DNA from: Prorocentrum cordatum
Taxonomy: Eukaryota
Direction: 5' to 3'
DNA length: 55,650 nt
NCBI GenBank assembly: GCA_963575745.1
Contig: CAUYUJ010000145.1
Location: 62,001-117,650, forward strand
Position numbers and translations under genes: made by a program. This document shows positions 2,622 through 55,650 of the stretch, in pieces (the first letter of the stretch is position 1; every line of letters begins with the position of its first letter). A model generated the notes under the pieces. The model did no database searches, was not told the origin of the DNA, and saw only the letters and a list, made by a program, of their open reading frames with translations.

Positions 2622-2940
2622 ACAGCCGTCCCCGCGCGGCACCTGCGCCAGGGAGTTCGTCGCGCACAGGTTCTCCCCGGGGTTGTCCAAGCCTGAGGGT
2701 GGGGGTCGAGCTGTTCCTCGTTCTTCAGCCTGCTAGGCTTCTCCTGCTCCTGCTCCTGCTCCGCTCTCCTCCTCGTGTGCCGCTGTCTCCTCCTCCTCGT
2801 CCTCCTCCTCCTTCTCCTCCCTCGTCCTCCTCCTCCTCAGCCATTTCCCGCCCGAGCCGCCCTGGCCTGCGGGGGCGCGCGCGGATGGTGCAACCGCCAA
2901 CTTCGAAGTGGCGTTGCGGTTGCGAGTCACCCTGTCGACG

Positions 2941-4160
2941 TCAAAAGGTCGGCATCAAAAGAGGTGGGTGCCCAACGTCATCAGCTACAATGCGGTGACG
3001 GGCATGCGCCGTGCCAGGTGCGGAGTCCGCCTCCCTCGCCCCCTCGCCTTCCCCCTCCCCCTTCTTTTCCTCCACCTACTGGCGAGCAATAGCGCCCGCC
3101 AGCCGCAGCGGCGCTGTTGCAGAGACGCAGATCAGCTACGAAGCTGGGATCGGCCTCAGCAGCGACAACGTTGCTGGAGGCAGGTCGAGCAAGTTGGTCA
3201 TCAGCTACAGCGACGGGACCAGCACGTGCGACACCAAAGCAGAGCCCGACGTCCTCACCTACAGCGCGGCAAACAGCGCATGTGAGAAAGGCGGGCAGTG
3301 GCAGCATGCCCTGGCAGGGCTCCGGAACACGGAAGCAAAGCTGGAGGCTAACGCGCTCAGCTACACGGTTGCCATCAGCGTGCGCGAGAAGAGCAAACAG
3401 CGCGCCCTCAACCACAGCGCCGCAAGCAGCGCGTGCGAGAATGGCGGGCAGTGGAAGCAGGTTTCGGCAAGTTTCCGAGAGAAGGAGGCAGAGCTGGAGC
3501 CCGACGTCCTCAGCCACAGCGTTGAAATCGGCGCGTGCTGGACAAGCGAGCAGTACACAACTCGAGGCAGCGGACCAGTGCACCCCGAGGCGGCAGCAGG
3601 CGGCAGTACAGGAGCAGATCCACCCAGCTACAGTTCTGGGATCAGCTCGTGCGCAAAGACAGGCAGTGGCAGCAGGCGCTGGCAATGCGAGAAGGGCACG
3701 CAGGGGCAGCACGCTGCTGACACGCGAGAGGCAGAAGTGCAGCGGCGGACATCCTCAGCTACGATTCTCAGATCAGCTCATGTGCGAAGAGCAGGAGCCA
3801 GCCAAGACCAGCTACAACGCTGGGAGCGGTTTGTGCGAGAAGGGTGGCAGCATGCGACAGTGTTGGAGCAAACTTCCTCAGTTACAATTCTGGGATCAGC
3901 TCGTGCACGAAGGCAGGCAATGGGAGCAGGCGCTGGCACTGCGAGAAGGGCACGCAGTGGCAGCAACTGTCACTGGGAGAAGGCGGAAATGCAGGCGCGG
4001 ACGTCCTCAAGTACAGTTCTGAGATCAGCTCGTGCACGAAGGCAGGCAGTGGGGCACGCAGGGGCAGTGGACGCTGGCGCTGCGAGAAACCGTGAGGAGT
4101 GGGAGGCGAAGGCAGAGCCCGACGTGATCAGCTACAATGCTGGACGCGAGGGAAAGGCAA
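2941..4160 (+). pseudogene. Degenerate pentatricopeptide-repeat (PPR) array
   Basis: Repeated EPDV(L/I)(T/S)YSA..SACEKGGQWQ.AL units (PNVISYNA, EPDVLTYSAANSACEKGGQWQHAL, SYNSGISSC, EPDVISYNAG) spread over three frames. Confidence 0.8.
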
Positions 4161-4209
4161 GCAACACGTGCGGCATCCTCCTCCTCCTCCTCCTCCTCCT
4201 CCTCCTCCT

Positions 4210-4309
4210 NNNNNNNNNNNNNNNNNNNNNNNNNNNNNNNNNNNNNNNNNNNNNNNNNNNNNNNNNNNNNNNNNNNNNNNNNNNNNNNNNNNNNNNNNNN
4301 NNNNNNNNN
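4210..4309. other. Assembly gap (100 N) within a (CCT)n tract
   Basis: Run of N. Confidence 1.
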
Positions 4310-5164
4310 CTCCTCCTCTTCCTCCTCCTCCTCCTTCCCTCCTCCTCCTCCTCCTCCTCCTCGCCTTTCTCCTCCTCCGCCCTCTCCTGCTCCTCCTCCA
4401 CCTCCTCCTGCTGCAATCACGACTTTGATGGGGCCCGGCGTCATGATTATTCCATGACGTCGACCTCCAGAGGCCTCGACCCATTCCCAGGGACAAGTTT
4501 TTCGTTCCGAGTCGTTTTCTGACGGTCCCGAGGCCCGGCGAGGGCCCCCCGAGGCCCGAAACGAAGAACAACTGTTTTGTCGCACTTTGATCATGAATCG
4601 ATGGGGGTCTGGGATTTCAGCTTGGCTGCAGATTAGCAGGCGAAGAGAAGGTGTAAAACAAGCTCTTCCCCCGCTGGGGGGCGCCTGCCCCAGGGCGGCG
4701 GGAAAGCTTCTGCCCCAGGGCTGAACCTAAACGGTGTCTTTCGTTGTCGTTTTGTGCTCGTTGTCCCTCGCTTTTGTCTCGCATCGCTTGTTTTCCCGCG
4801 CTTTTGTCCCCCCCTCCCTCTCGCTGGAAAGAGGAGAGAGGAGGAATCGGCGTGGTGGTGGTGTATATTCTTTGGACCCCCAAATCGGCCTTTATCGCAA
4901 AACGAAGTCGAAACGAAAACGGCCCACGAAAGTGCCAAAAACACCGTTTAGGTCCAGCTCTGTTATACCCTTACGGTGGCACGTCGGGGCATTAACTGTC
5001 CAGCCGCCGCGGGGCAGGTGTCCCCAACGGCGGAACAATGTATGTCATACCGTTCTTCGTCGGCTAATGTACAATAGGGTCCCGACCTCAAGAAACCGGC
5101 CACAAGAAACCCAACCCTGAGACCCCAGGACGTCCGTTGATGTTTTGTGTGGGGACGTCACTGG

Positions 5165-5360
5165 AGGCCTCCTAGATGGGGTCGGAGCAGGTGGGGTCGG
5201 AGGATCGCACCGCATCGCCAATGCATCGGCGATGCATCGCCGATGCATTGCCGATGTCGACGTGAAGCAAATCGGGCCCCACATCGAGCCGCATCGGAGA
5301 TGTATCAGCGGTGCGGCGCGATCCTCCGACCCCATCCGCTCCGACTTTCTCTAGGGGGCC
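5165..5360. repeat. Inverted-repeat element with an internal 44-bp near-perfect palindrome
   Basis: Arms 5181-5214 / 5312-5345 (31/34), extended by ggcctcctag / ctagggggcc; palindrome 5213-5256 centred on atgcat. Confidence 0.7.
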
Positions 5361-5807
5361 TGGAGCCACGCTCTCCACAGCAGAACCATCGAAACCCAAG
5401 AAACCCGGGGCACCCTGGAGGCAAGCCGGATGTGTCTTGGCACGGGTCCTCCTCCTCCTCCTCCTCATCCTCCTCCTCCTCCTCCTCCTCCTCCTCCTCC
5501 TCCTCCTCCTCCTCCTCCTCCCCTGTAATGTAGACGATGCAGCTGCTGCGCACCGCGCGGGGCCTCCCGAGGGTTTCCTCACGAGTGGGCAAACCAAAGA
5601 ATGGCATGTGCGCGTCGCTGCAGCAACGATCTGTGAAGGTACGTCGTCACTCTGAGGCGCACGCAACCGAAAGGCGAGTTCCCCTTTGTCCTCCCTCGTT
5701 TGTCCCTCCTCTCCTCCCTCGTCCCTCACTCCCTCCCTCACACCCTCCTCCTCCTTCTCGAACTTATCCTCCTCCTCCTCCTCCTCCTCCTCCTCCTCCT
5801 CCTCCTC

Positions 5808-5825
5808 TAGCCGTTCTGGCTCAGG
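5808..5825 (+). other. Relict dinoflagellate spliced-leader-like sequence at the 5' end of LINE-A
   Basis: tagccgttctggctcagg vs dinoSL ...TAGCCATTTTGGCTCAAG: 15/18, all differences are transitions, exactly at the (TCC)n/unique junction. Confidence 0.65.
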
Positions 5826-6033
5826 CATTTCGCCTGTGCTTGCAACAGCTTATCCTCAGAACGGCACACAGCTATTGCGGGCTGAATTGGCTCGTATTCC
5901 ATTTCATTCAGTTCGCGGGATCTCAACCCGCACGCTTCCATTTGTGAGCTCCTGCAGGAGCATCTCTTCACGACGTCCCCATCGGCGGCATGGCGGGTGG
6001 CTCTGCTGTCGGAGGCGGTAAAGGGCGCGTGGC

Positions 6034-9000
6034 GTGGGCGCCATGGCACTCGAAGTGGTCCAGTCCTCCTCCCTCTGGTCCTCTGGTGGTCTCCAAGGCG
6101 AAGCGCCTCGGATTGGAGCCGTCCGAGTGCCGAGGCGCCGCGACCACACCCAGTGGCCGCCGTTGGTGCCAGGCCTCCAACGTCCGCCTGCTACTCATGT
6201 GGATGCTGGTCATGGCCACGCTCCTGACAAGCGGTGGACATGCTGCTGGTGTGGATGCAAGAAAAACGAAGGCCGCTTCTACTTCTGCAAGCACTGCGGA
6301 GCGCTCAAGTCCGACTCCGCGGTGCCATCATCGACCTGGTCTTACGGTGGAGCGTTGGCCCTCTTCGAGGATGGTGCTGCAGGTGGAGGTGGCAAAGCTG
6401 GAGGTAAAGGACTTCCGGCAGGCGCTGGAGGCATCAAAGGAGGCAAGGGGCTCCCCAATGACGGTGGCAAGGGCCCCACCCTTCCGGGTGCAGGTGCCCC
6501 CGCCGCAGATGCGCCTCCGCTCACCAGCGAGGAGTACCTCCAGTTGTCGGGCCTCTGCGCAAAGATGGGCGACACGCAGGGAGCAGAGGCGTACAAAACG
6601 GCCGCTGCGGCTCTGCAGAAGCCGGCGGCTGCTCCTGAGGCCGTGCAGGTCCGTCTTCAGAAAGCGCACAGCAAGGCTCGAGGCGTCGAGAAGAGGTTGG
6701 AGGCAGCTTGCAATAAGTTCGACCAGCTCGAGTCCCAGTTGGAGTTGCAGCGTTCAGCTGTCATTCAACTTCGTGCAGAACTGGTCGCGGCGGAATCAGA
6801 GCATGGTGATCTCGTACGCAAGCTTCATGCTGAGTTGCCCCCTGCCACGCCAGCGGCCGGTGGCAACAAGCTCTCCATGGACGACCTGCTTGACGAAGAG
6901 AAGTTTGCGGCTGCCTTCGACGTCGACGTGGGTTCCGCCTTCCAGGTGGGCGTTGACGACGAGCTCTCGGCCGAGGACCAGACTGAGCTCCAGAACCGCA
7001 TCGAGCAGTTCAAGACTGGCATCTCCTCCATGGCAAAGAGCCTCTTCTCGGAGGCTAAGTCCAAGGTCGACGGCCTCAAGGCGGAGCACTCTGCGCTGGC
7101 GGCTCGGATGGCGGCGAAGAAGCGTCGCACTGGAGCTGACGGAGAAGGAGTGGCCGCTGGTGACACAGCGGGCGCTGCCCCCCCAACTGCTGGCGATGGC
7201 CAGGGCGCCCAGGCCGCGGCAGCTTCGGCCCGTCCGGAACCCCAGGCGCCCCCAGCAGGCGGCGCCGCTCCCGGCCCTCCCGCGGCTGCTGAACCGCCAG
7301 CGCCTTCTGCATCCGCGCGTTCTCGCGCTGACCGCATCGCAGGCAAGGGTCACTCTTCTGAGCCACCCCCCCTGGAGGCACCTAATAATCCTTCGGTCCT
7401 GGCCCGTCTCCCGGTCGTCTCGGGGTGCCGTGTCCCTGCTTCTTTGGGACTTCAGGTTCTGGGCTCAAGGGAAGGCTCTTATGGGCAAGCGCTCCAGGGG
7501 GGATCTGAACTTGCTTTTCAACAGCTGCCTGGAGCGCGATCTCTGGCGCAGCTCGCTCTTTGGCGCAGGAGGGGGATGCCCCCTTTGCTTGCCCAGTGTG
7601 TAGGGGAGCCTGCACAGCAGCGTCTGTCTCGCCCTCGATGGTCAGCGTTGCTTGCTCGCTCTCTTGCTGTGCTCAATGGCGACAGCTCCACCTCGTCCAT
7701 TGCCCGCGCTAGTTTGCAGCATGCTTCTTCGTTTGCGTTCAGTTGCACTTCGTTTGCTCGCCAGCAGGCGCCCGGCAATTTCGCCGCCCCTGCTCGTGCA
7801 TATCCAGTGCTCTCTGTGGCGAAGTTTGCTGTTCACCGCGTCTCTTGTGTGAAGCTGCCACTGGAGATGCCCTTGATTTCCAGTCAGCGCGAGGCTTCTC
7901 TCGCCGTCTCGTCTGGTGAGCGCCCTTATGATGGTGCTGCCCCGTTCGCTCTCTCCCCTCTCGCTCCTCCTCCCCCTCCTCCTCCTTCGCCTCCGGCGGC
8001 AGAGGCAATTGCGACCGAGGGGCAAGCTAACATCTTTAATGTTTTCTTGCCCTGCTTTACTGAACGCGGCGGAGCCGACGCTCTTGGGCCCCTCGCCTGC
8101 CGTTCCAGTTTCCTTGGGCCTGAAGCTTCGTTGTTTTCCCCCGGCCTCGCCGCCCAGGGCAAAGTGGGAGAGTTGCTCTCGCAGAGTCCTGGAGGTGCGA
8201 GTGCAGGCCAGGGGAGCCACGGCGAGCAGTCACCAGAGAATATCGATGCGGTGGCCCTCAAGGTTCAGACCATCAACTGCAATTCTTGGGGCAGGATGAA
8301 GTCCATGTTGGAAGGCGCTAACACGCATGTGGTGCTGTGTCAAGAACACAGGTTGCTGACTCAGGAAGCGATCGATCAGGCCAGCTCCTGGTGCATTCGC
8401 CGCGGATGGAAGTCGATCTGGTCGCCTGCGGTTGCGACGGATTCGGGGGATACCAGCTCCGGAGTCGCCATTTTCGTGCGCAGCTGGCTGGGGTGTCGTC
8501 CCCTTCCGGGGGGTCCCATTTGTCCTGGACGAGCCGTCGGGTGTTTCGTGGAGCTGCCAGGGACCCCCCCTCTTGTGATGCTGTCGGCCTACCTTCATCA
8601 TTCGGAGGGCCTGTCCGACAACAATCGCGAGATTCTGGCCAGGATCGGCGAGAGTGTTGATTGTCTGCACTTGCCGTGGCTTCTGGGTGCTGACTTCAAT
8701 TTCGAGCCCAAAGAGCTCGAGGACGCTCAGTTCATCAGCGAGCTCAGAGGGTCTCTTGTTTTCCCCAGCGTATGCACTCATTACCCTGCGGGCCCGCCGA
8801 CCACCTTCGACTATTTTGTGTGCTCGGGCGGCTTAGGCAAAGCTGTCGCGAAGGTCGAAACGCTGTTGGACACGGAGCTCTCACCCCATCGCCCGGTGGA
8901 GCTTTCGTTTCACCCCCGTTTGGCCGTCCTTCAAGCCTTGACTTTTCGCAAGCCTCCCCCTCTTCCGAGTGCCAGGGTTGTGGGTCCTGCTCCTCGTGAC

Positions 9001-11319
9001 TCGTCCTGGGCTGGAGAGCAAGCCCTGGCCGATTTGGCCCTTGAGAGGCTCGAGGTAGGAGACTTTTGGGGTGCGTATCGTCTGCTCGGCCCTCTCTATA
9101 AGGCTTGGGCTGACCACGCCGAGCGTGACCTTGTGCCTCTGGTCGGCCAGGCCCCCTTCAAGTACGGCACGAGAGGGCTCGGACCTCAGCTGGTCTGGCG
9201 CTCGGTCCTCGCCAGAGATACCCAGGTGCGCTACCCAGCTCACCGTGCGATCAAGTGGTTAGGCCAGCAGCTTCGGGCCTTCATTCACACGTGCAGGGAT
9301 TCTCACTTGTCCTCTTCTGCTGTGCATTTGCGCTCTGTCCTGGTGCACCCTCCTGTCGTCATTTTTGATGCTCGTGCTGACTATGCTCCGCTTTTCGAGC
9401 AGGTGTCGACCGCAGTTGGAGATTCGAGCGACGGCCAGGACCTTGGCGACGTGTATTCCCGTGTGTTTGAGGCCGTCCAGGCCGCCGATGTCAAGTATGC
9501 TGCCAAGAGTCGGAGTGATTGGTCTTCCTGGTTGCATGTGGGGGTGAACTCGGGGGCCAAACGTGTGCATCAGCTTCTCCGGGACCCTTCCCCATGGGCC
9601 CCCAGCAGCACGCTCTCAGCGGAAGGATGTGTCGTTGCTGACCCCCTCTCGCTTCTCAAAGCCGAGGGTTCGAGATTCGCCGACCTCTGGGGGGTGGGGG
9701 AGGGTGCGTTTCCCTCCGGCGAGATTTTGGAGCCGTTACCCCGTTTGACGGTGGATGAAATCCGTGATGTCTCCCGCAGCTATAGGGACTCCTCTGCTGT
9801 GTCTGTTGACGGCTTCCATTGTAAGCACTTCTCCTACTTATCTGATGCTGCTCTCACTTGCCTCAGCAGCATTTGGGCCATCATGGAGGCGACTGGATCT
9901 TTGCCTCCGCAGATCTCTGTCGTTATGCTCGCGTTGCTTCCGAAGCCTGTCGGAGGCTACCGGCAGATTGGGGTGTTCTGCTCCTGGTTCAGAGTCTGGG
10001 GCCGCTGTCGGCGCCCTGTGGCCTTGGACTGGGAGTTGGCACACCCCAGGCGGTACTGGGCAGCCGGCCAGCATCGTGGAGCAGCGGACGTCGTGTGGCG
10101 TCAGTCGCTCATGGCCGAGAGCGGTTTGGCCAAAGGGGAGTCATCTTGCAGCGTTTTCTTTGATCTTCGGAAATTCTATGAACACATTTCCTTAAGCAAG
10201 CTTGAAGAGAGATGTCGTCGTCACGGGTTCCCGCTGGTCATAGCTCGTTTGTGCCTCTTCGCTTATCGATGCGGAAGGTTCCTGTGTTTGGGAGGCTGGC
10301 TGGAGGGGCCCCACTTTGTCTTGAATGGTGTCATTGCTGGGTGTTCGATGGCCACGACGTTCATTCGAGTCTTTTGCTTGGATGGATACGATAGCCTTCC
10401 CACTCGTTCTCGACTCGACCTCGACGTGTACATAGACGACCAGGGGTTGTCGTGCACGGGGAGGGCTCGTGATGTTATCGATTCTATCGTCCAGGGATCT
10501 CGTGACTTGCAGCACGTGGTTGAACATGCGTTTGGGTGCTCCTTCGCCCTGGATAAGACGGCGGTTGTTGCCAGTTCGAAGACGATCGGCACTCAGGTGG
10601 CGGATGAATTACAGAAGCTTGGAGGAGCGTTCTGCAATTCTGCAGTGAATCTTGGTATAGATTATACGGCAGGGCGATCAGTCCGCGTGTCTGGCCGGTG
10701 TGCCAAGCTCAAGGAGAGGCTTGCCAAGGCGAGTCGTGCTGCTAGGCGGCTCAAGCGACAGACCAAGGTCCTGAAGCGCTCGGTGGTGCTCAAGGTGTTC
10801 TCTGCGGGGCCTCTTGCGGGAGCCTCCTATGGGTCGGAGATCACAGGTATCAGCGACCATGACCTTCACCAGCTGCGCCGCGCAGTGTTCTCCGTTGTTC
10901 GGCCCGTGAGCCAACTGAGGTCGCTCACCACGGCCGCTATCTTGGATGGCGACCCCACTTGGCGGACGGCCACGGCACCAATTCTCAGGTGGAGCAAAGA
11001 GGTTTGGTTGAATCAGACGAGCGCGTTTCGTTGGACCATTGGGCTCCCCCAGCTCCGCGAAGCCTGGTCGTCTGTTTTCTCCAGGGCCTCGTGTTCTTGG
11101 AGGTCCGTCAGCGGACCCATTTCGGCTTTGAGGATGTCCCTTGTTCGCCTCGGCTGGACTATGAAAAACTTCATGACGCTTCGCGACGACAGAGGTATGT
11201 CCATCCCCCTCGGCATTGTGTCGTCTGCCCTCATTAGGTCCCTCCTCAAAGATGGTTATCTTCGGATGCTCGAGCGGGAGTCCGGGGACAAAAGGGGTAT
11301 GCGTCCCCGCCTCTGCTAA
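6034..11319 (+). CDS. LINE-A polyprotein: RanBP2-type Zn finger, coiled coil, APE endonuclease, reverse transcriptase (first in-frame ATG 6043)
   Basis: WTCCWCGCKKNEGRFYFCKHC; APE motifs TINCNSW, LCQEH, SAYL, GADFN, TFDYF, SPHRPV; RT motifs LLPKP..GYRQI, FFDLRKFYE, GVIAGC, YIDD. Confidence 0.9.
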   Translation: MGAMALEVVQSSSLWSSGGLQGEAPRIGAVRVPRRRDHTQWPPLVPGLQRPPATHVDAGHGHAPDKRWTCCWCGCKKNEGRFYFCKHCGALKSDSAVPSSTWSYGGALALFEDGAAGGGGKAGGKGLPAGAGGIKGGKGLPNDGGKGPTLPGAGAPAADAPPLTSEEYLQLSGLCAKMGDTQGAEAYKTAAAALQKPAAAPEAVQVRLQKAHSKARGVEKRLEAACNKFDQLESQLELQRSAVIQLRAELVAAESEHGDLVRKLHAELPPATPAAGGNKLSMDDLLDEEKFAAAFDVDVGSAFQVGVDDELSAEDQTELQNRIEQFKTGISSMAKSLFSEAKSKVDGLKAEHSALAARMAAKKRRTGADGEGVAAGDTAGAAPPTAGDGQGAQAAAASARPEPQAPPAGGAAPGPPAAAEPPAPSASARSRADRIAGKGHSSEPPPLEAPNNPSVLARLPVVSGCRVPASLGLQVLGSREGSYGQALQGGSELAFQQLPGARSLAQLALWRRRGMPPLLAQCVGEPAQQRLSRPRWSALLARSLAVLNGDSSTSSIARASLQHASSFAFSCTSFARQQAPGNFAAPARAYPVLSVAKFAVHRVSCVKLPLEMPLISSQREASLAVSSGERPYDGAAPFALSPLAPPPPPPPSPPAAEAIATEGQANIFNVFLPCFTERGGADALGPLACRSSFLGPEASLFSPGLAAQGKVGELLSQSPGGASAGQGSHGEQSPENIDAVALKVQTINCNSWGRMKSMLEGANTHVVLCQEHRLLTQEAIDQASSWCIRRGWKSIWSPAVATDSGDTSSGVAIFVRSWLGCRPLPGGPICPGRAVGCFVELPGTPPLVMLSAYLHHSEGLSDNNREILARIGESVDCLHLPWLLGADFNFEPKELEDAQFISELRGSLVFPSVCTHYPAGPPTTFDYFVCSGGLGKAVAKVETLLDTELSPHRPVELSFHPRLAVLQALTFRKPPPLPSARVVGPAPRDSSWAGEQALADLALERLEVGDFWGAYRLLGPLYKAWADHAERDLVPLVGQAPFKYGTRGLGPQLVWRSVLARDTQVRYPAHRAIKWLGQQLRAFIHTCRDSHLSSSAVHLRSVLVHPPVVIFDARADYAPLFEQVSTAVGDSSDGQDLGDVYSRVFEAVQAADVKYAAKSRSDWSSWLHVGVNSGAKRVHQLLRDPSPWAPSSTLSAEGCVVADPLSLLKAEGSRFADLWGVGEGAFPSGEILEPLPRLTVDEIRDVSRSYRDSSAVSVDGFHCKHFSYLSDAALTCLSSIWAIMEATGSLPPQISVVMLALLPKPVGGYRQIGVFCSWFRVWGRCRRPVALDWELAHPRRYWAAGQHRGAADVVWRQSLMAESGLAKGESSCSVFFDLRKFYEHISLSKLEERCRRHGFPLVIARLCLFAYRCGRFLCLGGWLEGPHFVLNGVIAGCSMATTFIRVFCLDGYDSLPTRSRLDLDVYIDDQGLSCTGRARDVIDSIVQGSRDLQHVVEHAFGCSFALDKTAVVASSKTIGTQVADELQKLGGAFCNSAVNLGIDYTAGRSVRVSGRCAKLKERLAKASRAARRLKRQTKVLKRSVVLKVFSAGPLAGASYGSEITGISDHDLHQLRRAVFSVVRPVSQLRSLTTAAILDGDPTWRTATAPILRWSKEVWLNQTSAFRWTIGLPQLREAWSSVFSRASCSWRSVSGPISALRMSLVRLGWTMKNFMTLRDDRGMSIPLGIVSSALIRSLLKDGYLRMLERESGDKRGMRPRLC

Positions 11320-12205
11320 GATGTCGTCAAAGAAGCCCTGGCCAGTTCCAAATTTACCAGCCTCGACAAAGCGAGAATCCGAGCGTTCGCCACGGAAGCG
11401 TTTTTCACGGGATACCGTGCCGTTGCCCTCGGTTATCTTGTGTCCTCGGTCTGCCCCTTCTGCGGCTGTGAGGATACAATCTTCCACAGGCTGTGGGAGT
11501 GTCAGCACGGCCCGGTCGCCGAGGCGCGCGCCTCGCTAGTCGATCAGAATATGATTGACGCTGCTGTTGCCGCTAAGGCTTCGGACGAGCACGATGACTT
11601 GTTCGTCTTCACTTCTGGAGCCTTTCGGCATCCCGCCGACGTGTATCCCCGAGCTCTCACTGAGGCTGATGATGGTCCGTTTCTTGTCTGGCACGATGAC
11701 ACTCTCGAGCCTCCTGACGGAGGCGAGCGTGGCACCAGCATGTGGGGATCACTCTTTGTTGACGGATCGTGCTCTCGACACGTGGTGCGGGAGCTCTCGC
11801 GTGCTGCCAGTAGTGTGTGCATGGTAGGCCCCGATGGACAACTTCTAGCTGAGTTCAGGGCCCCCGTCTGGAGTCCTCTCCCCCAGACGCCTCAGGGGGC
11901 CGAGTTCAGTGCGTTCACGTGGGCCACGGTTCTTGCAAGGCAGCCTCCGGAGTCCACTGTGTATTCGGATTGCTCGAATGTGGTCAAGACTGCCAACAGG
12001 TCCAAGGCAGAACAGCTTTCTGCCAAGCTTATGTACTCGGGTGCGTTCATTCAGTGCTATGCCCAACAACCGTCCATTTGTCCATGTGTCAAGGTGGCGG
12101 CGCACCGTAGATGCGCTGCGCCTGGTTCGTGACGCATTAGCGGCTGAAGATGATGAGGCCCCGCTCGTGCCTCAGCCTGCTGACGATCTAGTCGAATCCG
12201 ATTAG
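11320..12205 (+). pseudogene. In-frame continuation of the LINE-A ORF after one TAA: zf-RVT and RNase H, with an apparent deletion/frameshift near 12110
   Basis: CPFCGCEDTIFHRLWEC; LFVDGS, QTPQGAEF, VYSDC, KVAAH. The final RNase H GN..AD motif is missing and an acidic tail lies in another frame ending at 12205. Confidence 0.85.
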
Positions 12206-12857
12206 TTCTCGATATTTTACGGCACCTGCACCTCCCTCCGTTGCAGGTGCTCTGTCAGGGCCGACCCCTGATTTGGAGGCGTGGGCGTGGAGCTCAAAAA
12301 AATCCTCCTCCTCCTCCTCCTCCCCCTCCCCTCCCCTTCCTCCTCCTCCTCCTCCTCCTCCTCCTCCTCCTCCTCCTCCTCCTCTTTCTTCTCCTCCCTC
12401 CTCCTCCTCCTCCTCCTCCTCCTCCTCCACCTCCTGCTCCTCCTCCTCCCCCCACCCCCTCACCCTCCTCCTACTCCTCATCCTTATCATCGTCTTCCTC
12501 CTCGTAAGCACCCCCAGACCCGCGATGCACATCACAAAAACCTCGATGCACATCAAAGTTGCTAGCGCTTATGAGTGGGAACGCCTTTTTGCGGACCCCC
12601 GCTGGCCGGGTCAATAATCTCTTGGGGGCTCCCTGAAGCCGTCCGGAGGCGTCTTGGAGGCCTTTTGGGCAGTCTTGGTGCCATCTACAGCCGTCCTGGA
12701 ACGCCCTGGGGCCGTGTCGGACCCCCCTTGGGCCGCCCTGACGGCGTCCTGGAGCCAATGTGGACGGTCACGGGAGCATCCTGGCGCCTGCTGCGGGGCT
12801 CCTCGACCAACGCCGCTCGGCTAGTTCGCCCCTCCCGGGCCAGGACCCCGTCCGATC

Positions 12858-27857: not shown

Positions 27858-28410
27858 TCCACAATTACTCAATACGAATACTACTCTCCCTCTTCCCCTG
27901 ATGACGTGCTGGGAGTGTTGCCCCCCCCCCCCCGCGTCCTGTTTTTTTACACACAGGTTTCCCGGGAGATGGGTTTTCGCTTGCATTTTTTTTTCAAAAT
28001 GCTGCTCTCGCTGAGGCGCCGGCCTCATTTTCGGACCCCGCTCGTTCCGAATCGTGCTCCCGCTGCAGCGCTGGCCTCATTTCCGCGCTTCCGCTCGTTC
28101 CGAATCGTGCTCCCGCTGCAACGCTGGCCTCATTTCCGCGCTTCCGCTTGCTTCGACTCGTGCTCCCGCTGCAGCGCTGGCGTCATTTCCCGTGCCATGC
28201 CACGGCGTGCAATGCAATGCTAGGTTGATACTACGCTTTGCGGTGCTCTTCTACGCCATGCCATGCCGTGCTCTACAATGCATCGCGTACCCTTTCGGGA
28301 TCCTTGCCCTGCTCGACATCCGACTGTGCGAGTAGAGAGGGGATCTGCGCCATGGTAAGGGATGGGAGGGAGGGGTAGGATGTCAGATATGACGCGTTCG
28401 CACCTAGCTT
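27858..28410 (+). mobile_element. Dispersed non-autonomous element D, copy 1 (~53-bp internal tandem repeats, 3' hairpin)
   Basis: Both ends and the internal repeats are shared with 45400-46238; (CCT)n on both flanks. Confidence 0.65.
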
Positions 28411-45399: not shown

Positions 45400-46238
45400 T
45401 CCACAATGACTCAATACGAATACTACTATCCCTCTTCCCCCGATGGCGGCCTGAAAGTAGCCGCCCCCCCCCCGCGTCCTGCTTTTTTACACACAGGATT
45501 CCCGGGAGTTGGGTTTTCGCCTGCATTTGTTTTCAAAATGCTGCTCTCGCTGAGGCGCCGGCCTCATTTTCGGGCCCCGCTCGTTCCGAATCGTGCTCCC
45601 GCTGCAGCGCTGGCCCCATTTCCGTGCTTCCGCTCGTTCCGAATCGTGCTCCCGCTGCAGCGCTGCCTCATTTCCGCGCTTCCGCTCGTTCCGACTCGCG
45701 CTCCCGCTGCAGCGCTGGCTCATGTCCCGCGCTTCCGCCCGTTTCGACTCCTGCTCCCCTCTGCAAGCGCTATTCGTCGTCACCGCCACCATGCCACAGC
45801 AACCATCACGCGCACTACGCGCACACAAATCGTGAAAAAAAAAACCACACTAAACACCACCACCACCACCACCACCAAGACCAACCAAAGCACCAGCCCC
45901 ACACCAAACCAGCACCACACCAGCACCACACCAGCACCAGCACAGCACCAGCACCAACACCACCACCACCAGCACCACCACCACCACCACCAGCACCACC
46001 ACCACCACCATCACCACCACCACCACCACCACCACCACCACCACTACCACCACCACCACCACGACAACCACGCACACACGCACGCACGCACGCACGTGCA
46101 CCACCACCCACTACGCACGCGCGCGCGGAGCCACAGGTCCGCTACGACACGCGTCCGCGGATAGAGAAAATCAGCGCCATGGTAAAGGATGGGAGGGAGG
46201 GGTAGGACGTCAGATATGACGCGAGCGCACATAGCTTT
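45400..46238 (+). mobile_element. Dispersed element D, copy 2 (with an internal (CAC)n expansion)
   Basis: Homologous to 27858-28410. Confidence 0.65.
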
Positions 46239-46928: not shown

Positions 46929-47086
46929 TTAGGTCGGGCGTGTCCCCCTGCAGGCGGACTCTGAACGAAAAAAAACAAATACGAGAAACATACTCCAAAA
47001 TATTCAGAAGTAGTCAAAAATCGTCCCCAGACTATTCATTGACTATTTTTGAATACTCCTCCTGTAGAGGGACACGCCCGACTCAA
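46929..47086. mobile_element. MITE-like element, GTCCCCAGACT family, copy 2
   Basis: ttaggtcgggcgtgtccccctgcagg / cctgtagagggacacgcccgactcaa. Confidence 0.75.
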
Positions 47087-48201
47087 CACTGCGGGTATGA
47101 AGTCCACGGCCACCCTCTGGCGCGGGCGCCCCCCACGGTGGAAACCTGCACGCCGCGCCGATTCTCGTCCGCCCCAACCCTGCGGAAGAAATCCTCCAGG
47201 GCTCCGCGCTTCTCCTCAGGGGGCGTCCAAGAGAGGGGCTCGCAGATCATGGCCAGAGGCACGTGCGAGGACCGGGGGGGCACCGGGAGGCGTGTTGAAA
47301 GGAGAAGAGGGGGCCACCCACACCCGGGTGGTGTCCACCCCCTTCCCCAGACATTCCCCCGCTCTTGGAGGCCCCCGATCTCCTCGATGGCGTTGTCGAG
47401 GGTCCTCCCCGGGAAGAGCAGCTGGAGCGGAGCGTCGGCCCTCTTGCACTGCAGCCTGAGGAGCGACACGCCCCTCAGGGGCCCGCCCGGCTGGTTGCAG
47501 GCGGTCTCAAAGAGGTACTCCTCCGTCCCCCGGTGCCAGATGGCCCAGTGCAGGTTCAGGAACTCCAGGGCTGCGGCGTCGGTCTTGATGTCCGTTGTGC
47601 ACAGTCTCAGGCCCGCAAGGCCGCCGCGGAGCTCAAGGTTGTTGTACACCTTTTTCTGGTTCTCCACGCAGGCCCGCAGATCGCTCCAGGACGACTCCTC
47701 CTGCGAGCATCGTTTGGTCGATCCCCATCCCTGCTGGCATCGCCTTGGCCCTGCTGGTCAGCCCTACCCCCCAGGAGGGATGGTTGGGCTGTGATACCAA
47801 GGCCCAGTGGGGATGGGGATCGGTTGGACGATGCTGATCCTGGGACGGCTCGACGCCCAGGCCGCAGATCAGCGACCGCAGGGAGTCCATCGACTCCTGG
47901 TACTGCCTGTACTGCGCGTTGAGCCCACCGACGCAGCAGAGCCCAACCGCGTCCAGCTCGAGCGCCTCAAGCGAGGCAGCGGGGACACGGCTCGGCACCA
48001 AAGGAAACCGGGGTCCTGGTGGAAGCCAGGTCCTGAGGAACGGGCTTTCAATCGCACGACCCACCAATGCCGAATCGCCTTTTGGCCTTCCCCGGGCCAT
48101 GTCCGGGCAGCGAAAGAACGGCATGACTCCATTCCTGCAGGGCCCACGTTCTTCACATGGCTAGGGAAGGCACGACGCCGACGAGGACATGGATGACGAT
48201 A

Positions 48202-49774: not shown

Positions 49775-50109
49775 CCTAGGATGAGGTGGGGCATGTCCCC
49801 CTTCAGGCGGGTTTTGGACGATAATTCAAAAATGCCCTAAAAATATTCGCGAAAGTGGCCAAACATAGTCGATAAATCGTCCCCAGACTATGTTTGTACT
49901 ATTTTTGAATAAGGTGGAGACTTTAAGATAAGGATGCCTTCGATAAGGAACCCAAAGTCTCGCGACCGATGGGCGGCCGAACGTGGGCCACCCACCTCGC
50001 CTTGGAACAATAAAGAATGCAACAGGGTCTGGGCCCCAGGAAGACATTCCTTATCCAATGCCGCGACCGTATTCCTCCTGTTGAGGGAGAGGCCCGACTT
50101 AAGCCTAGG
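49775..50109. mobile_element. MITE-like element, GTCCCCAGACT family, copy 3, with a ~160-bp nested insertion (49911-50070)
   Basis: Same TIRs and core; the insert has its own IR gataaggatgccttc / gaagacattccttatc. Confidence 0.7.
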
Positions 50110-50647
50110 ATATCCTAAGCCTGCCGCTCAATTTTTTTAAGCCCCCCAGGGCCCTCCTTGCCTCGCGAGGGGTGCCCTGGAGGCTACGAGGGGGTCTCCT
50201 CCTCCTCCTCCTCTTCCTCCTCCTCCTCCTCCTCATCCTCATCCTCACCCTCATCCTCATCCTCCTCCTCCTCCTCCTCCTCATAGCCGCGCGGCCCAGG
50301 TGGACATGCACCAGCGGCCGCTCGGCAGGCGGGGGAGGCCTCGGGAACCCCGACTTCGAGGCTGGCCCCCACCCGCCCCGATATCGCACTCACCCTTCAC
50401 TCCACATTTCTGCTTCACATCATTCTTGTTTCTTCTCGCGCTGCTCGTCTGGGCCCTCACGTCGGCCTGCTTCGTGGGCCAGGACCTCAGCGAGCCAGAC
50501 TGGATCGTCTGCTGCACAGAGGCGGCGCTCGGCAACTCTGGTCTGCTCGTCAGCATTACAGAGAGAGCGTCGGCTGTCAGCGGAGCGAGATTACATCAGC
50601 AGACGGCGTGTCAGGCTGTCAGCGGAGCGATTACATCAGCAGACGTG

Positions 50648-53600
50648 ATGCGAATCTTGGTGTGGAATCCACTTTCCGTTTCTGATCGAGATCGTGAGTT
50701 AGAGATTCTGTATGCCTTCAAATCTTTTGACGTACTTGTGCTCATCGGGACTCAACGCAAGTGTTCCCCGAGCGCTCCGTATCATGTGGAAGATCTCCCT
50801 GGGTTCAAAGTGGTCCATTGTGGGTGGTCTGCTAAAGGAGCGCTGACTAACTGTTCTTGTGGCATTGCTTTTTACTTGAACAAAAACACTGTACGTGCAC
50901 GTGATGTAGTTCGCATCTGGACTGCACCGCCTGACATTCGTGGACGCGCAGCAGCAATACGAGTAAAATCGTTATATGGTGATCTTTCGGTGGTGGCGTT
51001 GTACTACCCTCCTCGGTCTCGAGATCCACGCGAGCAGCAGCAGTTATCGACGACGATTTCACGTGTGACGGACTTTGGGCATCATGTGCTGTCATCTCTT
51101 CCGTGTCGTACGTTTCCTGTTGTGGCTACTGATCTTAATGACGGTATCGGGCTCGTGGGTGGTAAGCACGGTCACGTGATGGTCGAGAGCAAGGCCCTGG
51201 GGCCTTACGGAAGGGGAGTCGAACACCAGGCTGGGGGACTCATGAGAGAACTGGCTGAGACGTACGAGCTGTCGGTTTTAGATACTGTTTTCAGTGGAGG
51301 GCCTAGTTATTATGGGGTACCTACGAAGTCGACGACGACGGATCGGACTCCCTCGACTTCCCCACCTTCGGCGACGGCGGCTCGTCTGTTTGCAGCGTCA
51401 GGGAAAGCTAAGCAGCAGAGTTGTTCATGGATCGATCATGTTCTGATACCGTCGTCACACGTGCCGAGTGTACGACGATTCACCCAACCTTTTCGGACGG
51501 CACGCCGACTTCAGGCCATTCCTGACAGCCGGCCTCGAGATCATGTACCATTCATTCTTGAGATTGATTTACGTCCGTGTCATGTCGATCGTGAGGAGCG
51601 GAAAAGGTGGGACTTCGTGGGGCTCGGACAGGCACTTCGTAGTGAGTTCCATGCTGATGCCTTTCGCCAGTCAGTGGAACGCGCGATCGGCGAGGTTCTT
51701 GAGGCAAAGGGATGTGTCTCAGTTGAGCAGCTTGTCCAAGATGCTGAGTCTCTAGAGGCTGCTTGGCACGAACTAGTCGACCTCCTTCAGCGTCAGGGTT
51801 TAAGCATGTTCGAAGCAAGTCCCAGGGCCCTTCCTGCTGCTTATCAGGAGCTAGCTCGTGAGCGCGTTCGGCTTCTTAGGTTGCGTGGACAGGCTCGGGC
51901 TGCGGTTACGGACAATTTAGAAGATGTTCTAGCTCTGTCGCGTCTGACCCGTCTGTGTCGTGGGCTGCGGAGGCGTCTTCGTCAGCAGCGTGAGGCTCAG
52001 CTTGCAGAAGAACTTGCAGATGCTCACGCACGGGGCCTCATGTCTGAGGAGTGGCGGATCTGTCGACTCATGGCTGGAGCTGGGGTAGGTCCGAGACGGC
52101 GTAGGTTTGGACACATAGCTGCCTATACCCCGAGCATGCAGGAGTGGGTGGAGGATTTGGCGATGCCGTCGAGCAGTGGGGGAATGTCTGCGAAGCCGAT
52201 CGACGGGGATAAGTTTTTGGAGCTTGCGTCGAAATACGACACGGCGGATTTTCCGACGACCGAGGAGGTGGAGTGGGGGAGGGCTGATCTGGACAGAATT
52301 TCCAAGGGGTTCCGCACTGCTCGTCGTCGTCGCGCCGCGGTACCGTGGAGCGTGCCGAACGAGGTATGGTCGTTACTTCTTTCTCAGCGCCCTGAGGGGC
52401 CAGATCGTGTTGCTGGACTCGGGGCCCCCCAACCTCGAGGACGGGGTGAGCTAGTTGCGCGGTGGGTAGCAGCCATACTAACTAAAGTTCGACAGCATGG
52501 CCGTTTAGTGGCCCAGTGGAATCAGTCATTCACGTACCAACTGCCCAAGGACAATGGGAAACTGCGGACCCTGGGAACCCGCCTTCTACATGGGTTATGT
52601 TCTTTTGGTAAAATGTGGGTGAAGACGGCCTCCAGACGGGCCAGGGACATCCCCTACCACGACTACGGATATTTACCTCGGCGATCGCGTACGGGAGCTG
52701 TGAGGGCCACTGCCGCCCTAACCTGGAGGGCCCAACGGGGCCGACTGTCTACGGTGGATACCAAACATGATATGCGAAATGCGTTCGGGTCTGTTCAACA
52801 CAATACACTGGATGCTGCTGTTGCTCGTATATATGATCCTGCTGATGCTGACATCCTTCGTCAGCGCCATCGTGCTGCTTGCTTCATGGTGTGTGCTGAG
52901 GGGGAATCGAAGGTCTTTCAGAACTCTGAGGGGAACTACATGGGGGACTCAAATGCGGCCACCGTTTTCCAGGAGGCGTTCGCGCCGCCGATCCGTGCCT
53001 GGCAGGAGGCGCACCACAGCGACCAGGCCAGCCAGCTGCAGGGAGTGTGTACCATCTCGGGGACACGCTGCGATTTGTCTCTGAGAATTTTCGCTGACGA
53101 CGTCAATAAGACCCACGTCGTCCAGGATCTTACCAGTGCACGTCGTATCATTTACAAGTCTGACAGACTGTTGAACTCTCAGCTGTCGCCTCACGGGATC
53201 TACCAGAGTGATGGGAAAAAGCAAGTTCTGCCACACTACGTCGGGCATGGTGCCAACCGCTTCACACGAGCAGCGTTTCAGGCTGGGGATAATCTACCAG
53301 GGCTCGTCCTGCCTGTGGTGCCGTTCCTGGGTACTTTGTTCGAGTCTTCGGGTTCCTGGAGCTCCGAGGTGTCTGCTCGCTGTGCCGCTGTTGTCAGAGG
53401 GTGGGCCCACATGAGACGCTTCTGGACGGAATGTACGGCCTGGCGTTCGAAGAAAATGGCTTTTCGTAGCAACGTGATCGGGGCGGCGGTGTCTGGACTC
53501 ACGGCCGTGGTGCTCTCAGAGTCTCAAGAGGCCCGATTGGACTCCATCGTTCTTAAGTACCTGAAGGTGTTGCTGGGGGGCGTTGCTGTTAAGGTTCCGA

Positions 53601-54184
53601 TGGTCGCGGCTGACGGGTCCGAGCATGTTGTGATCCGAACCCCTCCGGCCATCCAGATCTGGAAACGTGCGGGTCTTGTTCCGATTCCCTTGGAGCTACG
53701 GGTTCAGAGACTTAAGGAGTGGCAGAAGGTGGCGAGGTCCCCCGTCTGGCACGTCCAGCAGCTCACTGCGGTCTTTGGGAAGCTCGACTTTGAGGCCCCG
53801 ACGCCGTCGCCCTTCGAGTGGTTTCCCTCGGCTCAGGTTCACCTCCAGGACACGTCGAAGACCAATCCGTGGGCCCGTCAGTTTTTTCGGGACCTCGAGT
53901 ACCTCGGGCACACGGAGGAGGGGAGGAATGTCTTGGAGTTGACGGGCGGGGACTACCTAAACGTGTTCAGAAATGACCAGGATGCGTTTCATGCGTTTCA
54001 GAAGTTCGATGTCCAGCAGCTGAGGGCCGAATGGCTCCTTCGTGAGGTTCCTGTTGCCGAGGCCCCTCCTGACCCAGGTGAGCTCGCTGCGGGCGATCAC
54101 GTCTGCACCCTGCTTACGGGAGACGGGCTTTCATGCGATCGTCGCTTTCAAACTCGTCGTGCGCTTCTTGCTCACCAGCGCTAG
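50648..54184 (+). CDS. LINE-B APE endonuclease + reverse transcriptase; continues in frame past a TAG into C2H2 fingers (to ~54450)
   Basis: APE: LVWNP, LIGTQ, LYYP, TDLN, WIDHV, DHVP; RT: LPKDNGK, HDMRNAFGSV, GNYMGD, FADD; fingers C..C.RRF..RRALLAHQR, CIAC..F..H, CPQC..F..LQRHVVSH. Confidence 0.9.
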   Translation: MRILVWNPLSVSDRDRELEILYAFKSFDVLVLIGTQRKCSPSAPYHVEDLPGFKVVHCGWSAKGALTNCSCGIAFYLNKNTVRARDVVRIWTAPPDIRGRAAAIRVKSLYGDLSVVALYYPPRSRDPREQQQLSTTISRVTDFGHHVLSSLPCRTFPVVATDLNDGIGLVGGKHGHVMVESKALGPYGRGVEHQAGGLMRELAETYELSVLDTVFSGGPSYYGVPTKSTTTDRTPSTSPPSATAARLFAASGKAKQQSCSWIDHVLIPSSHVPSVRRFTQPFRTARRLQAIPDSRPRDHVPFILEIDLRPCHVDREERKRWDFVGLGQALRSEFHADAFRQSVERAIGEVLEAKGCVSVEQLVQDAESLEAAWHELVDLLQRQGLSMFEASPRALPAAYQELARERVRLLRLRGQARAAVTDNLEDVLALSRLTRLCRGLRRRLRQQREAQLAEELADAHARGLMSEEWRICRLMAGAGVGPRRRRFGHIAAYTPSMQEWVEDLAMPSSSGGMSAKPIDGDKFLELASKYDTADFPTTEEVEWGRADLDRISKGFRTARRRRAAVPWSVPNEVWSLLLSQRPEGPDRVAGLGAPQPRGRGELVARWVAAILTKVRQHGRLVAQWNQSFTYQLPKDNGKLRTLGTRLLHGLCSFGKMWVKTASRRARDIPYHDYGYLPRRSRTGAVRATAALTWRAQRGRLSTVDTKHDMRNAFGSVQHNTLDAAVARIYDPADADILRQRHRAACFMVCAEGESKVFQNSEGNYMGDSNAATVFQEAFAPPIRAWQEAHHSDQASQLQGVCTISGTRCDLSLRIFADDVNKTHVVQDLTSARRIIYKSDRLLNSQLSPHGIYQSDGKKQVLPHYVGHGANRFTRAAFQAGDNLPGLVLPVVPFLGTLFESSGSWSSEVSARCAAVVRGWAHMRRFWTECTAWRSKKMAFRSNVIGAAVSGLTAVVLSESQEARLDSIVLKYLKVLLGGVAVKVPMVAADGSEHVVIRTPPAIQIWKRAGLVPIPLELRVQRLKEWQKVARSPVWHVQQLTAVFGKLDFEAPTPSPFEWFPSAQVHLQDTSKTNPWARQFFRDLEYLGHTEEGRNVLELTGGDYLNVFRNDQDAFHAFQKFDVQQLRAEWLLREVPVAEAPPDPGELAAGDHVCTLLTGDGLSCDRRFQTRRALLAHQR

Positions 54185-54473
54185 GCCTCGGGTGGCCAAC
54201 ACGGGGTCCCTTCGCTGGTCTCTAAGCTCGTGGTTACGAATCAATGTATCGCTTGTTCGTCGACCTTTCGATGCCGTGACACCGCTGTTCGACACCTCGT
54301 GAATGCGTACCAGTATGGGCGTTGCCGCGTGGACTCTTCGAAGTATGATCCTCCGATTGTGGGCCCAGATATCAGGATATGTCCCCAATGTCAGGAGCCG
54401 TTTGAGTCTCTCGAGCAGTTGCAGAGGCACGTAGTCTCACACTTGCCACTTCCACTACCAGAGTTTGTGTGGT

Positions 54474-55196
54474 ATGTTCTCGGCGGTCCCTGCTGCGAGC
54501 TCGTCCGTCGTGAGCGAGTCCAGCAGGCGTCGGCCTCCACCTGCGTCCGAGGGACGAGGAGACCGCGTGGCGAAGAAGGGCGCGCAGCGGCAGGGGAAGC
54601 AGCGCGTGCCCAAGGAAGAGCTCGAACAGCTGGAGACGCTAGAGTTGGAGCAGATCAAGCGTATCGTTCCAGTGGTCATGAAATTGTTGCTAAATGTGAC
54701 GATGAGGCAGCGGCAGTCAGAAGCAGTCTTGCTGGTCACGCTGGTGATGCCAGAGAATGCGATCCCCGTTCAGAGGAGCAGGGCACGCGTCAAGGCGTGG
54801 GTGGAGTCCGCTCAAGACCTTCGCGCCCGACAGAAGGAAGAAGACATCGCCCAGACGGGCACCATCTCCCTCGCGTGCTTGGTCGGCCTGACGGAGGGGT
54901 GCACAGAGGCGGGCCAGTCGGTAGGCGCCGCCAATGCAGGCAAGCTCGCAGCGTGGCGCCAGGAGGTGTCAGCGCTGAGCCTGCCCGAGGTCTCGCAGAA
55001 GTACCCGTTCGCCAAGGTGCAGACAGCCCACAAGAGCGACACCGTCAAGATCTTGATGACAGCGGATCCTTCCTTGCACGTGTTAATCGACTGCTTGGTG
55101 CAGCTGGGGGCGGAGAAAAAGGTCGGGGTGGCGCCGATGAACCATATGGAGCGGGTGCTACAATCGTTTCTGATGGACGGCGAGATGGACGCATAA
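54474..55196 (+). CDS. Uncharacterised 240-aa helical protein encoded downstream of RT in LINE-B
   Basis: Intact ATG-TAA ORF with GC3-rich codons, basic N-terminus, C-terminal GVAPMNHMERVLQ; decayed homologue at 600-1140 (-). Confidence 0.75.
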   Translation: MFSAVPAASSSVVSESSRRRPPPASEGRGDRVAKKGAQRQGKQRVPKEELEQLETLELEQIKRIVPVVMKLLLNVTMRQRQSEAVLLVTLVMPENAIPVQRSRARVKAWVESAQDLRARQKEEDIAQTGTISLACLVGLTEGCTEAGQSVGAANAGKLAAWRQEVSALSLPEVSQKYPFAKVQTAHKSDTVKILMTADPSLHVLIDCLVQLGAEKKVGVAPMNHMERVLQSFLMDGEMDA

Positions 55197-55650
55197 ATGT
55201 TCATGGTGAGAAGTTCGATTGCAGCCGCAGGACACGAACATTTGCTTCCCGCCGAAATTTGCCCCGCCAGATTTTGCCTCCCGCGCGGCTGCCGCCATCG
55301 CCATCATTATCATCAGCATTCGACTCGAATGATGAAGCTTCTGCGACGGCATCTGCTCGTCCTCCCTTGTCACGATGTACTGCGACGTCCAGCGACGTGA
55401 GGGTGCGTGCATCGTGTGCTTCGAGGGCGTCGGGAACTCAGACTTCGGGGTCCTTGAGGGCGAGGCGTGAGGCTCGCCCGCCTGCCGCCGCTGAGGCCGC
55501 CGTTTCTTCCTCTCCTCCTCCTCCTCCTCCTCCTTCTAAACGGGCTAGGAAGCACCAGGACGCTGTTCGGGTTTTTCGGAGTGCGGGCTTCGGCGAGAGC
55601 CTGTCGGGGTCCGCGGCCCGTCTCCTGGGGTACAGTGTGTAGTGCGTGTT

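Follow-up and report, generated by a model that had tools for sequence, protein, structure and literature searches.

The window analysed here, a continuous stretch of 55,650 nucleotides from the dinoflagellate Prorocentrum cordatum, contains a LINE (E1; 5808-12302, plus strand) whose first 18 bases resemble the spliced leader (SL) of dinoflagellate mRNAs. These bases are best read as an SL relict, a chance origin being very unlikely from the sequence comparisons. On balance, it seems probable that the SL was trans-spliced onto an ancestral RNA of the E1 family, that reverse transcription of this RNA ran nearly to its cap, and that the element has since inherited the leader copy as a 5' module. 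The first-pass annotation had gone further and let trans-splicing define the 5' end of the element. That interpretation is partly supported, about half of it being right: the 18-mer is a fossil SL that testifies to trans-splicing in the past, not to 5'-end definition in every cycle.

The element starts directly behind a (TCC)n tract (5744-5807, plus strand) that ends ...TCCTC. Its first bases, at 5808-5825 on the plus strand (unit 1), read tagccgttctggctcagg and are identical at 15 of 18 positions to nt 5-22 of the SL (TAGCCATTTTGGCTCAAG), which confirms the earlier observation that an SL-like 18-mer forms the first unique bases after the microsatellite. The reference was the DinoSL DCCGTAGCCATTTTGGCTCAAG as printed in passages of PMC7245778, taken from the literature and not from SL genes of the host. 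All three mismatches (A>G at 5813, T>C at 5816 and A>G at 5824) are transitions. When both strands of the window were searched, the 18-mer was the sole SL match with three or fewer mismatches, and the chance rate, estimated by dinucleotide shuffling, was 0.02 matches per window (two of 100 shuffles gave one match). In an alignment anchored to the SL, none of about 20,000 random 18-mers from the window reached the score of the E1 18-mer. By these sequence statistics, chance would be excluded as the source of the SL likeness of E1. The 18-mer also stops precisely at nt 22 of the SL exon (...CTCAGG), at the 5' terminus of a retro-insert. Relict-like 15-mers were found five times against 1.47 expected, and the remaining four, which have no preceding TAG, were rejected as they look like chance. 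No SL RNA gene was found within the window by the scan for SL matches or by Rfam.

The first four nucleotides of the SL (DCCG) are absent, and the junction reads TCCTC|TAGCC. It had been suggested that the SL start, TCCG, is microhomologous to the (TCC)n target and could have primed second-strand synthesis; such microhomology is not visible at the junction, which lacks the G that TCCG would leave. The motif had also been placed about 200 nt before the ORF. It does lie 5' of the ORF, and the distance to the ATG at 6043 is 235 nt.

By its sequence, E1 is a 6.5-kb APE/RT/RNase H LINE inside a TCC microsatellite: APE and RT lie in one ORF, there is an A7 tail, and no terminal repeats (LTRs) were found when 5601-12500 was compared with the window by BLASTN. 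All of its parts are on the plus strand. Behind a 5' UTR of 235 nt (5808-6042), in which SL-like fragments are enriched, the main ORF runs from the ATG at 6043 to an in-frame TAA (6043-11319, TAA at 11317-11319) within a stop-to-stop frame of 6022-11319. It begins with a part that appears by eye to be Cys-rich and coiled-coil-like (from 6043), followed by APE (about 8296-8862) and RT (about 10126-10572), which were matched by Pfam as Exo_endo_phos (2.6e-4) and RVT_1 (1.1e-5), both under the curated cut-offs. The same frame continues past the TAA (11320-12132, stop TGA at 12130-12132) with a Cys/His knuckle, seen by eye, and RNase H (about 11752-12000, Pfam 3.2e-4). A profile of the E1 family searched against the PDB gave Exo III (1.5e-7), human L1 ORF2p (4e-7) and RNase H (1.5e-5). 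The ORF is uninterrupted across the TAA site in nine aligned relatives; therefore, the TAA is probably a mutation of the E1 copy. At the 3' end, the A7 tail (12296-12302) closes the sequence ...GAGCTCAAAAAAA, and (TCC)n follows directly (12303-12503, plus strand). A target-site duplication is indistinguishable within the TCC repeat. Just 5' of the tracts that precede E1 there is an imperfect palindrome (5148-5379, 71% over 232 nt, with a core at 5213-5256 at 95%), which is built of gcatcg/cgatgc-like units.

The window contains no second copy of E1, as BLASTN with 5601-12500 returned only TCC repeats and tblastn returned nothing. The APE-RT part has 23 homologues, the best of them 40% identical, and the two that are named come from dinoflagellates, Amphidinium carterae and Prorocentrum cordatum. 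The stretch was also found in a sequencing run of one organism (X1) and in marine metagenome runs. Contigs of four runs, including X1 and a further run, X6, were aligned to it. Of the 189 aligned pieces from X1, 16 were at least 99% identical, 21 were 95-99%, 43 were 90-95% and 109 were less than 90% identical, the last figure indicating that the E1 family is old and multicopy. The depth of X1 contigs was 172 at 9919-10135 and 4-30 elsewhere along E1, with many loose ends at 9941-10035; the LINE copies or families that share this short, most conserved stretch of the RT are far more numerous than those sharing the rest of the element.

Evidence on the 5' junction of other copies comes from a 156-nt contig of X6, which matches 5811-5849 with four differences, remains recognisably related to E1 beyond 5849 and is preceded by a TCC-like tract ending ...CTCCTCCTCA. 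This diverged copy adjoins its tract within 3 nt of the E1 junction and is without the TAG, which suggests that the exact 5' end varies between copies. Among the 40 listed of 339 differences, with changes near contig ends filtered out, none fell in 5808-5830. A metagenome scan anchored 3' of the motif gave two matches, both unrelated, and none in viral contigs, and protein-guided locus scans for relatives of E1 found nothing in genome contigs or viral contigs. The microsatellite is thus seen on both sides of one full copy, E1, and before one diverged contig at the same place; together with the two other inserts described below, these make up the case for (TCC)n targeting.

SL-like sequence is not confined to unit 1. 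Directly behind it lies unit 2 (CATTTCGCCT, 5826-5835, plus strand), which matches SL nt 9-18 at 8 of 10 positions. This unit is weak on its own; the order of the two units, though, matches the layout of a DinoSL followed by a truncated relict. Passages of PMC7245778 describe how such a layout arises, as re-trans-splicing of a relict-bearing precursor at an internal AG leaves the SL and then a relict from about nt 8. Further SL-like fragments are at 5870-5886, 5887-5892, 5893-5904, 5938-5951 and 5998-6003 (plus strand). In the whole of 5826-6042 there are six local SL matches with a score of at least 6 and a summed score of 39, against means of 2.5 matches and 16.3 in 300 dinucleotide shuffles of the same segment (P 0.007) and a mean summed SL score of 10.8 in 507 other blocks of the window (P 0.014). 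These P values are modest and post hoc, unit 2 and the fragments having been sought after unit 1 was known. The sequences give moderate support to repeated rounds of SL addition in the E1 lineage.

Two other inserts in the window lie at (TCC)n tracts. The first of them, E3 (2839-4175, plus strand), has (TCC)n on both sides and starts ...TCCTC|AGCCATTT, the bases at 2839-2846 being exactly nt 6-13 of the SL, with the canonical A10 and T11-13. The probability of this start is 0.0011 in an anchored comparison and 0.0084 free of offset, the latter value becoming about 0.12 when corrected for the 15 other tract ends. The longest frame of E3 gave 2677 protein matches in a full HMMER search (best 1e-65), and PPR domains were present in all eight of the top matches scanned; no PPR match was returned by Pfam on pieces of E3 and nothing by the word-indexed search. 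As its three frames carry stops and frameshifts, these matches make E3 a decayed PPR-repeat pseudogene. Its 3' end is without an A tail, and a run of N (an assembly gap, 4209-4309) lies inside the downstream tract.

The window has 16 (TCC)n tracts of at least 21 nt in 55.6 kb, 12 of them on the plus strand, and E1, E3 and the remaining insert, E2, are all in the TCC-sense orientation. The motif AGCC, which was chosen post hoc, occurs within 5 nt of the tract end in 3 of these 16 tracts, where 0.37 would be expected (binomial P 0.0056). Another repeat family is found right after (TCC)n at 27861-28140 and 45403-45640; it starts ACAATKACTCAATACGAATACTACT, is not SL-like, and continues with a C-run, a T-run and repeated CTCATTTTCGG-like units. 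There is also a dispersed repeat with aggcccgacttaa at 2463-2624, 46930-47088, 49776-49911 and 50070-50102. The tracts with E3 and E2 have it about 100-190 nt on their 5' side, one further occurrence is elsewhere, and the landing sites of these two inserts may themselves be part of a repeat unit.

E2 (50284-55650, plus strand) is a second RT-encoding element and is cut by the end of the window. Its ATG is at 50648 and an in-frame TAG at 54182-54184. It follows a (TCC)n tract (50197-50283, plus strand) with the junction ...TCCTCA|TAGCCGCGCGGCCCAGG, so that its sequence begins TAGCCG. The RT was assigned from a weak Pfam match (RVT_1, E 0.0089) and a weak hhalign alignment over the LPK..G..R..G, D..N.F and FADD motifs; no homologues were found in the word-indexed search and none in the PDB. 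The UTR of E2 is 364 nt long and has, by eye, an internal tandem duplication of about 45 nt at 50560-50647, and the downstream part encodes C2H2 zinc fingers. E1 and E2 have exactly one in-frame stop each (11317-11319 and 54182-54184), between the RT and the zinc-finger/RNase H part, and programmed read-through at the TAG of E2 is possible.

E1 and E2 are not alike as a whole: their proteins gave no significant BLASTP match and a weak one by hhalign, their UTR DNA is similar at noise level, and the same level applies to any likeness among E1, E2 and E3 beyond the junction. The first 18 nt of E2, in contrast, match those of E1 at 14 of 18 positions (P 1.5e-4), with the pattern TAGCCG..C.GGC.CAGG. 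Compared with the SL, the E2 head is identical at 11 of 18 positions (P 0.037 anchored, 0.16 free of offset), which is not significant alone, and all three deviations of E1 from the SL are common to E2. This likeness of the two heads fits a shared LINE-specific signature as well as it fits the independent decay of two relicts. The bases G10, C13 and G21, common to both elements, were considered as proof of common descent and rejected, as the chance of the overlap is about 0.3 if changes mainly hit the 10 A/T sites.

The head of E1 is also predicted to fold. The predicted 5'-terminal structure (5810-5865, plus strand) consists of an outer 9-bp stem (5810-5818/5857-5865) and an inner hairpin (5822-5826/5832-5836), and RNA of 5808-5880 has a folding energy of -28.2 kcal/mol compared with a shuffle mean of -18.6 (z -3.2; none of 200 shuffles equals it). 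In this prediction, the three bases that deviate from the SL are all G-C paired. Restoring the SL letters changes the energy to -18.2 kcal/mol, and the observed sequence is not surpassed in folding by any of the 816 possible transition triples in its first 18 nt. No Rfam ribozyme was found in 5600-6200 at E values up to 10 or window-wide at the gathering score, and no Rfam family at all, those for ribozymes and SL RNA included, had a match at the E1 head or elsewhere in the window. The predicted fold is simply nested, and no self-cleaving head of the HDV-like kind known from R2 or L1Tc was recognised. An undescribed ribozyme at the 5' end of E1 is possible. According to the modelled fold, the relict is the 5' arm of a hairpin that may have gained a function of its own.

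These observations bear on the main rival to the SL-relict reading, namely that the head is a LINE-specific 5' signature or hairpin, acting as a promoter, processing signal or protein-binding site in the manner of the trypanosomatid Pr77, and that its SL likeness is coincidence or mimicry. We consider this unlikely. It would account well for two elements that are unrelated in protein and UTR DNA having such similar heads, for the predicted terminal hairpin of E2 (z -2.7) starting from nt 3 as that of E1 does, and for the SL deviations of E1 all being needed for the predicted stem; Pr77, as described in passages of the sources cited further below, provides a precedent in a trans-splicing organism. 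However, the agreement of the E1 terminus with one specific 22-mer is far beyond chance, the match ends exactly at SL nt 22 with a relict-like unit next to it, and E3, which is not a LINE and has no significant terminal fold (z -0.29), starts in the same SL register. The signature could itself be derived from the SL, and the two explanations would then merge.

Returning to the SL relict, its age relative to this copy of E1 can be estimated from the coding sequence. Over its roughly 2030 codons, the frame at 6043-12132 is interrupted by a single stop. Divergence was simulated with transitions favoured 2:1, and the probability of at most one new stop came to 0.76 for a divergence of 0.5%, 0.10 for 2% and 0.005 for 5%; the copy is therefore young, at most about 2% diverged since insertion. 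For 18 nt at 2% divergence, three or more changes have a probability of 0.005. As three changes after insertion are this improbable, the three SL mismatches would have pre-existed in the template RNA. There is no fresh or canonical SL upstream of the worn 18-mer either, and the two results together indicate that SL addition did not make the 5' end of this copy. The relict is called inherited on this argument from copy age and not on a family consensus; judged by the same argument, the consensus of the E1 family is probably no closer to the SL than this copy, an outcome that the first-pass annotation had itself named as refuting its claim.

This result weighs against the model of the first-pass annotation, in which a promoter is lacking, trans-splicing adds an SL to the RNA of the element in every cycle, and this SL sets the 5' end of each new copy. 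We regard this model as improbable. It has in its favour the SL-like 5' end, the order of units 1 and 2, which is expected from re-splicing of a relict-bearing precursor, and the failure to find known ribozymes at the E1 head. In addition, (TCC)n and the TAG behind it look like a polypyrimidine tract with its AG acceptor; the acceptor role is drawn from general splicing knowledge, and the literature search found no dinoflagellate data on such an acceptor. A young copy should, however, have a canonical SL, whereas E1 has three mismatches that precede its insertion and no fresh SL. Re-splicing at the AG of the relict would also stack 15-nt units endlessly, where one clear and one weak unit are seen, and neither SL nt 1-4 nor the TCCG microhomology is present. 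The part of the earlier claim that holds is that the RNA of the element was trans-spliced, as the 18-mer, unit 2 and the UTR fragments suggest for an ancestral RNA; that this happens in every cycle is not supported.

Another route to an SL at the end of a LINE is a chimeric retrocopy, in which the reverse transcriptase switched template from the 5' end of the LINE RNA to free SL RNA. U6-L1 chimeras made by template switching are known in mammals, and the SL RNA, a small nuclear RNA, is presumably abundant. The position of the SL part at the extreme 5' end of E1 would also agree with such a switch. The SL part, however, does not extend past exon nt 22, and what comes next is the relict-like CATTT unit, with no SL-intron sequence. 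This is the signature of a splice product, which argues against template switching and makes it very improbable. It is hardly credible that the 18-mer belongs to the target, either because the LINE landed beside a pre-existing relict or because E1 is an SL-gene-specific element of the SLACS/CZAR/NeSL type: LINEs specific for SL exons do exist according to passages of PMC4640811, but E1 is preceded by (TCC)n and has nothing SL-like behind its 3' end, the TCC-tract/CCGTT... arrangement recurs in the diverged copy from another sample, and the endonuclease is APE-type and not restriction-like, the TCC flanks and the nuclease both arguing against insertion into an SL gene.

The preferred explanation is thus descent from spliced RNAs, to which the stop at exon nt 22, unit 2 and the start of the non-LINE insert E3 all point. 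On at least one occasion, and probably on two or more, an ancestral RNA of the E1 family would have had the SL spliced onto it in trans, as happens to ordinary nuclear mRNAs. The SL-bearing RNA would then have been reverse-transcribed at a (TCC)n target almost to the cap, with only SL nt 1-4 lost. That E1 and E3, and possibly E2, lack the first 3-5 nt has a parallel in cDNA, as full-length reads of SL transcripts mostly begin inside the SL, at positions 2 and 8, according to passages of PMC7245778; reverse transcriptases may stall near the modified 5' end. Since then, the relict would have been inherited as part of E1, would already have been worn in the RNA that made this copy, and may now serve as the 5' arm of a stable terminal hairpin with a possible function of its own. 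The 5' end of the present RNA could be produced in several ways: by an initiator or promoter that the relict or hairpin contains, by read-through from the flanking microsatellite, with (UCC)n flanks perhaps guiding both junctions in the way of other target-specific LINEs, or by processing through an undescribed element. With regard to the first of these, passages of Song et al. 2017 (PMC5585692) propose the TTT(T/G) of SL relicts as a promoter motif. Finally, an SL-headed PPR pseudogene in the same kind of target suggests that the LINE machinery may copy SL-bearing cellular mRNAs in trans.

DinoSL relicts are an established mark of retroposition in dinoflagellate retrogenes (Slamovits and Keeling 2008, as cited, and passages of PMC5585692, PMC7245778 and PMC12014239). 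Like these relicts, the head of E1 is an SL copy encoded in the DNA that opens a retro-insert without introns, and the SL is followed by a relict from about nt 8, with identity dropping in the more internal units. It is unlike them in that its carrier is an autonomous LINE, the relict is the exact 5' terminus, lies in a predicted hairpin and would be passed on from one retrotransposition cycle to the next, and the inserts are located in (TCC)n. In passages of Song et al. 2017 (PMC5585692), the GO term 'RNA-dependent DNA replication' is reported as enriched among relict-bearing genes, which would make RT genes with relicts implicit in published lists. A preprint states, in the passages concerned, that the functions enriched in relict genes do not overlap with those of RT genes.

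With regard to its target, E1 can be likened to the microsatellite-specific APE LINEs described in passages of PMC3812793, such as Kibi in (TC)n, Koshi in (TTC)n, Dong in (TAA)n, Waldo and Mino, which are also APE-type LINEs with one microsatellite on both sides. These are animal elements with other repeat units, and the comparison concerns the flanks and not clade membership. The L1Tc/ingi elements of trypanosomatids, whose Pr77 is a 77-nt head with an HDV-like ribozyme (passages of PMC1874656, PMC3185411, PMC3383444 and PMC8190864), are likewise LINEs in organisms with SL trans-splicing and polycistronic transcription. Pr77 resembles the E1 head as a short structured 5' head common to different retroposons, and it solves the 5'-end problem of its elements. 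Its transcripts, however, are unspliced and it is a ribozyme, whereas the E1 head matches no ribozyme family and resembles the SL itself. In the SL-exon-specific LINEs SLACS/CZAR/CRE and NeSL-1, treated in passages of PMC4640811, a LINE and SL sequence are physically joined as they are in E1, but those elements insert into SL RNA genes by a restriction-like endonuclease, whereas in E1 the SL copy belongs to the element, the insertion site is (TCC)n and the endonuclease is of the APE type.

The standard marker by which retroposition is recognised in dinoflagellates is the SL relict, and passages of the literature report that about a fifth of genes carry one, state that the enzyme making SL-tagged retrocopies is unknown and, in one review, favour LTR elements. 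Our full-text search of the literature, judged from listings and matched passages, found no description of a LINE with an SL relict as its 5' terminus, and it found none of (TCC)n-specific LINEs in dinoflagellates; such genes may be included in published supplementary lists. A tentative and far-reaching possibility is that (TCC)n-specific LINEs make the thousands of SL-tagged retrogenes of dinoflagellates and exploit the RNA processing of the host. Landing in the sense orientation in a transcribed (TCC)n would put a polypyrimidine tract before the TAG of the relict; read-through RNA could be trans-spliced there and translated without a promoter, and the 5' UTR would be a growing stack of SL relicts recording past rounds.

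In this window, an SL-headed LINE, a similarly headed RT element and an SL-headed PPR pseudogene are united in the same kind of target site. Whether relict retrocopies are preferentially flanked by (TCC)n in sense orientation is testable on any dinoflagellate assembly, and the finding would be of greater interest if such a genome-wide test tied (TCC)n-flanked LINEs to the origin of SL-tagged retrogenes. For the LINEs themselves, the relict of E1 suggests that an element can carry the leader of its host as an inherited 5' module, which would give a new view of LINE 5' ends under trans-splicing.
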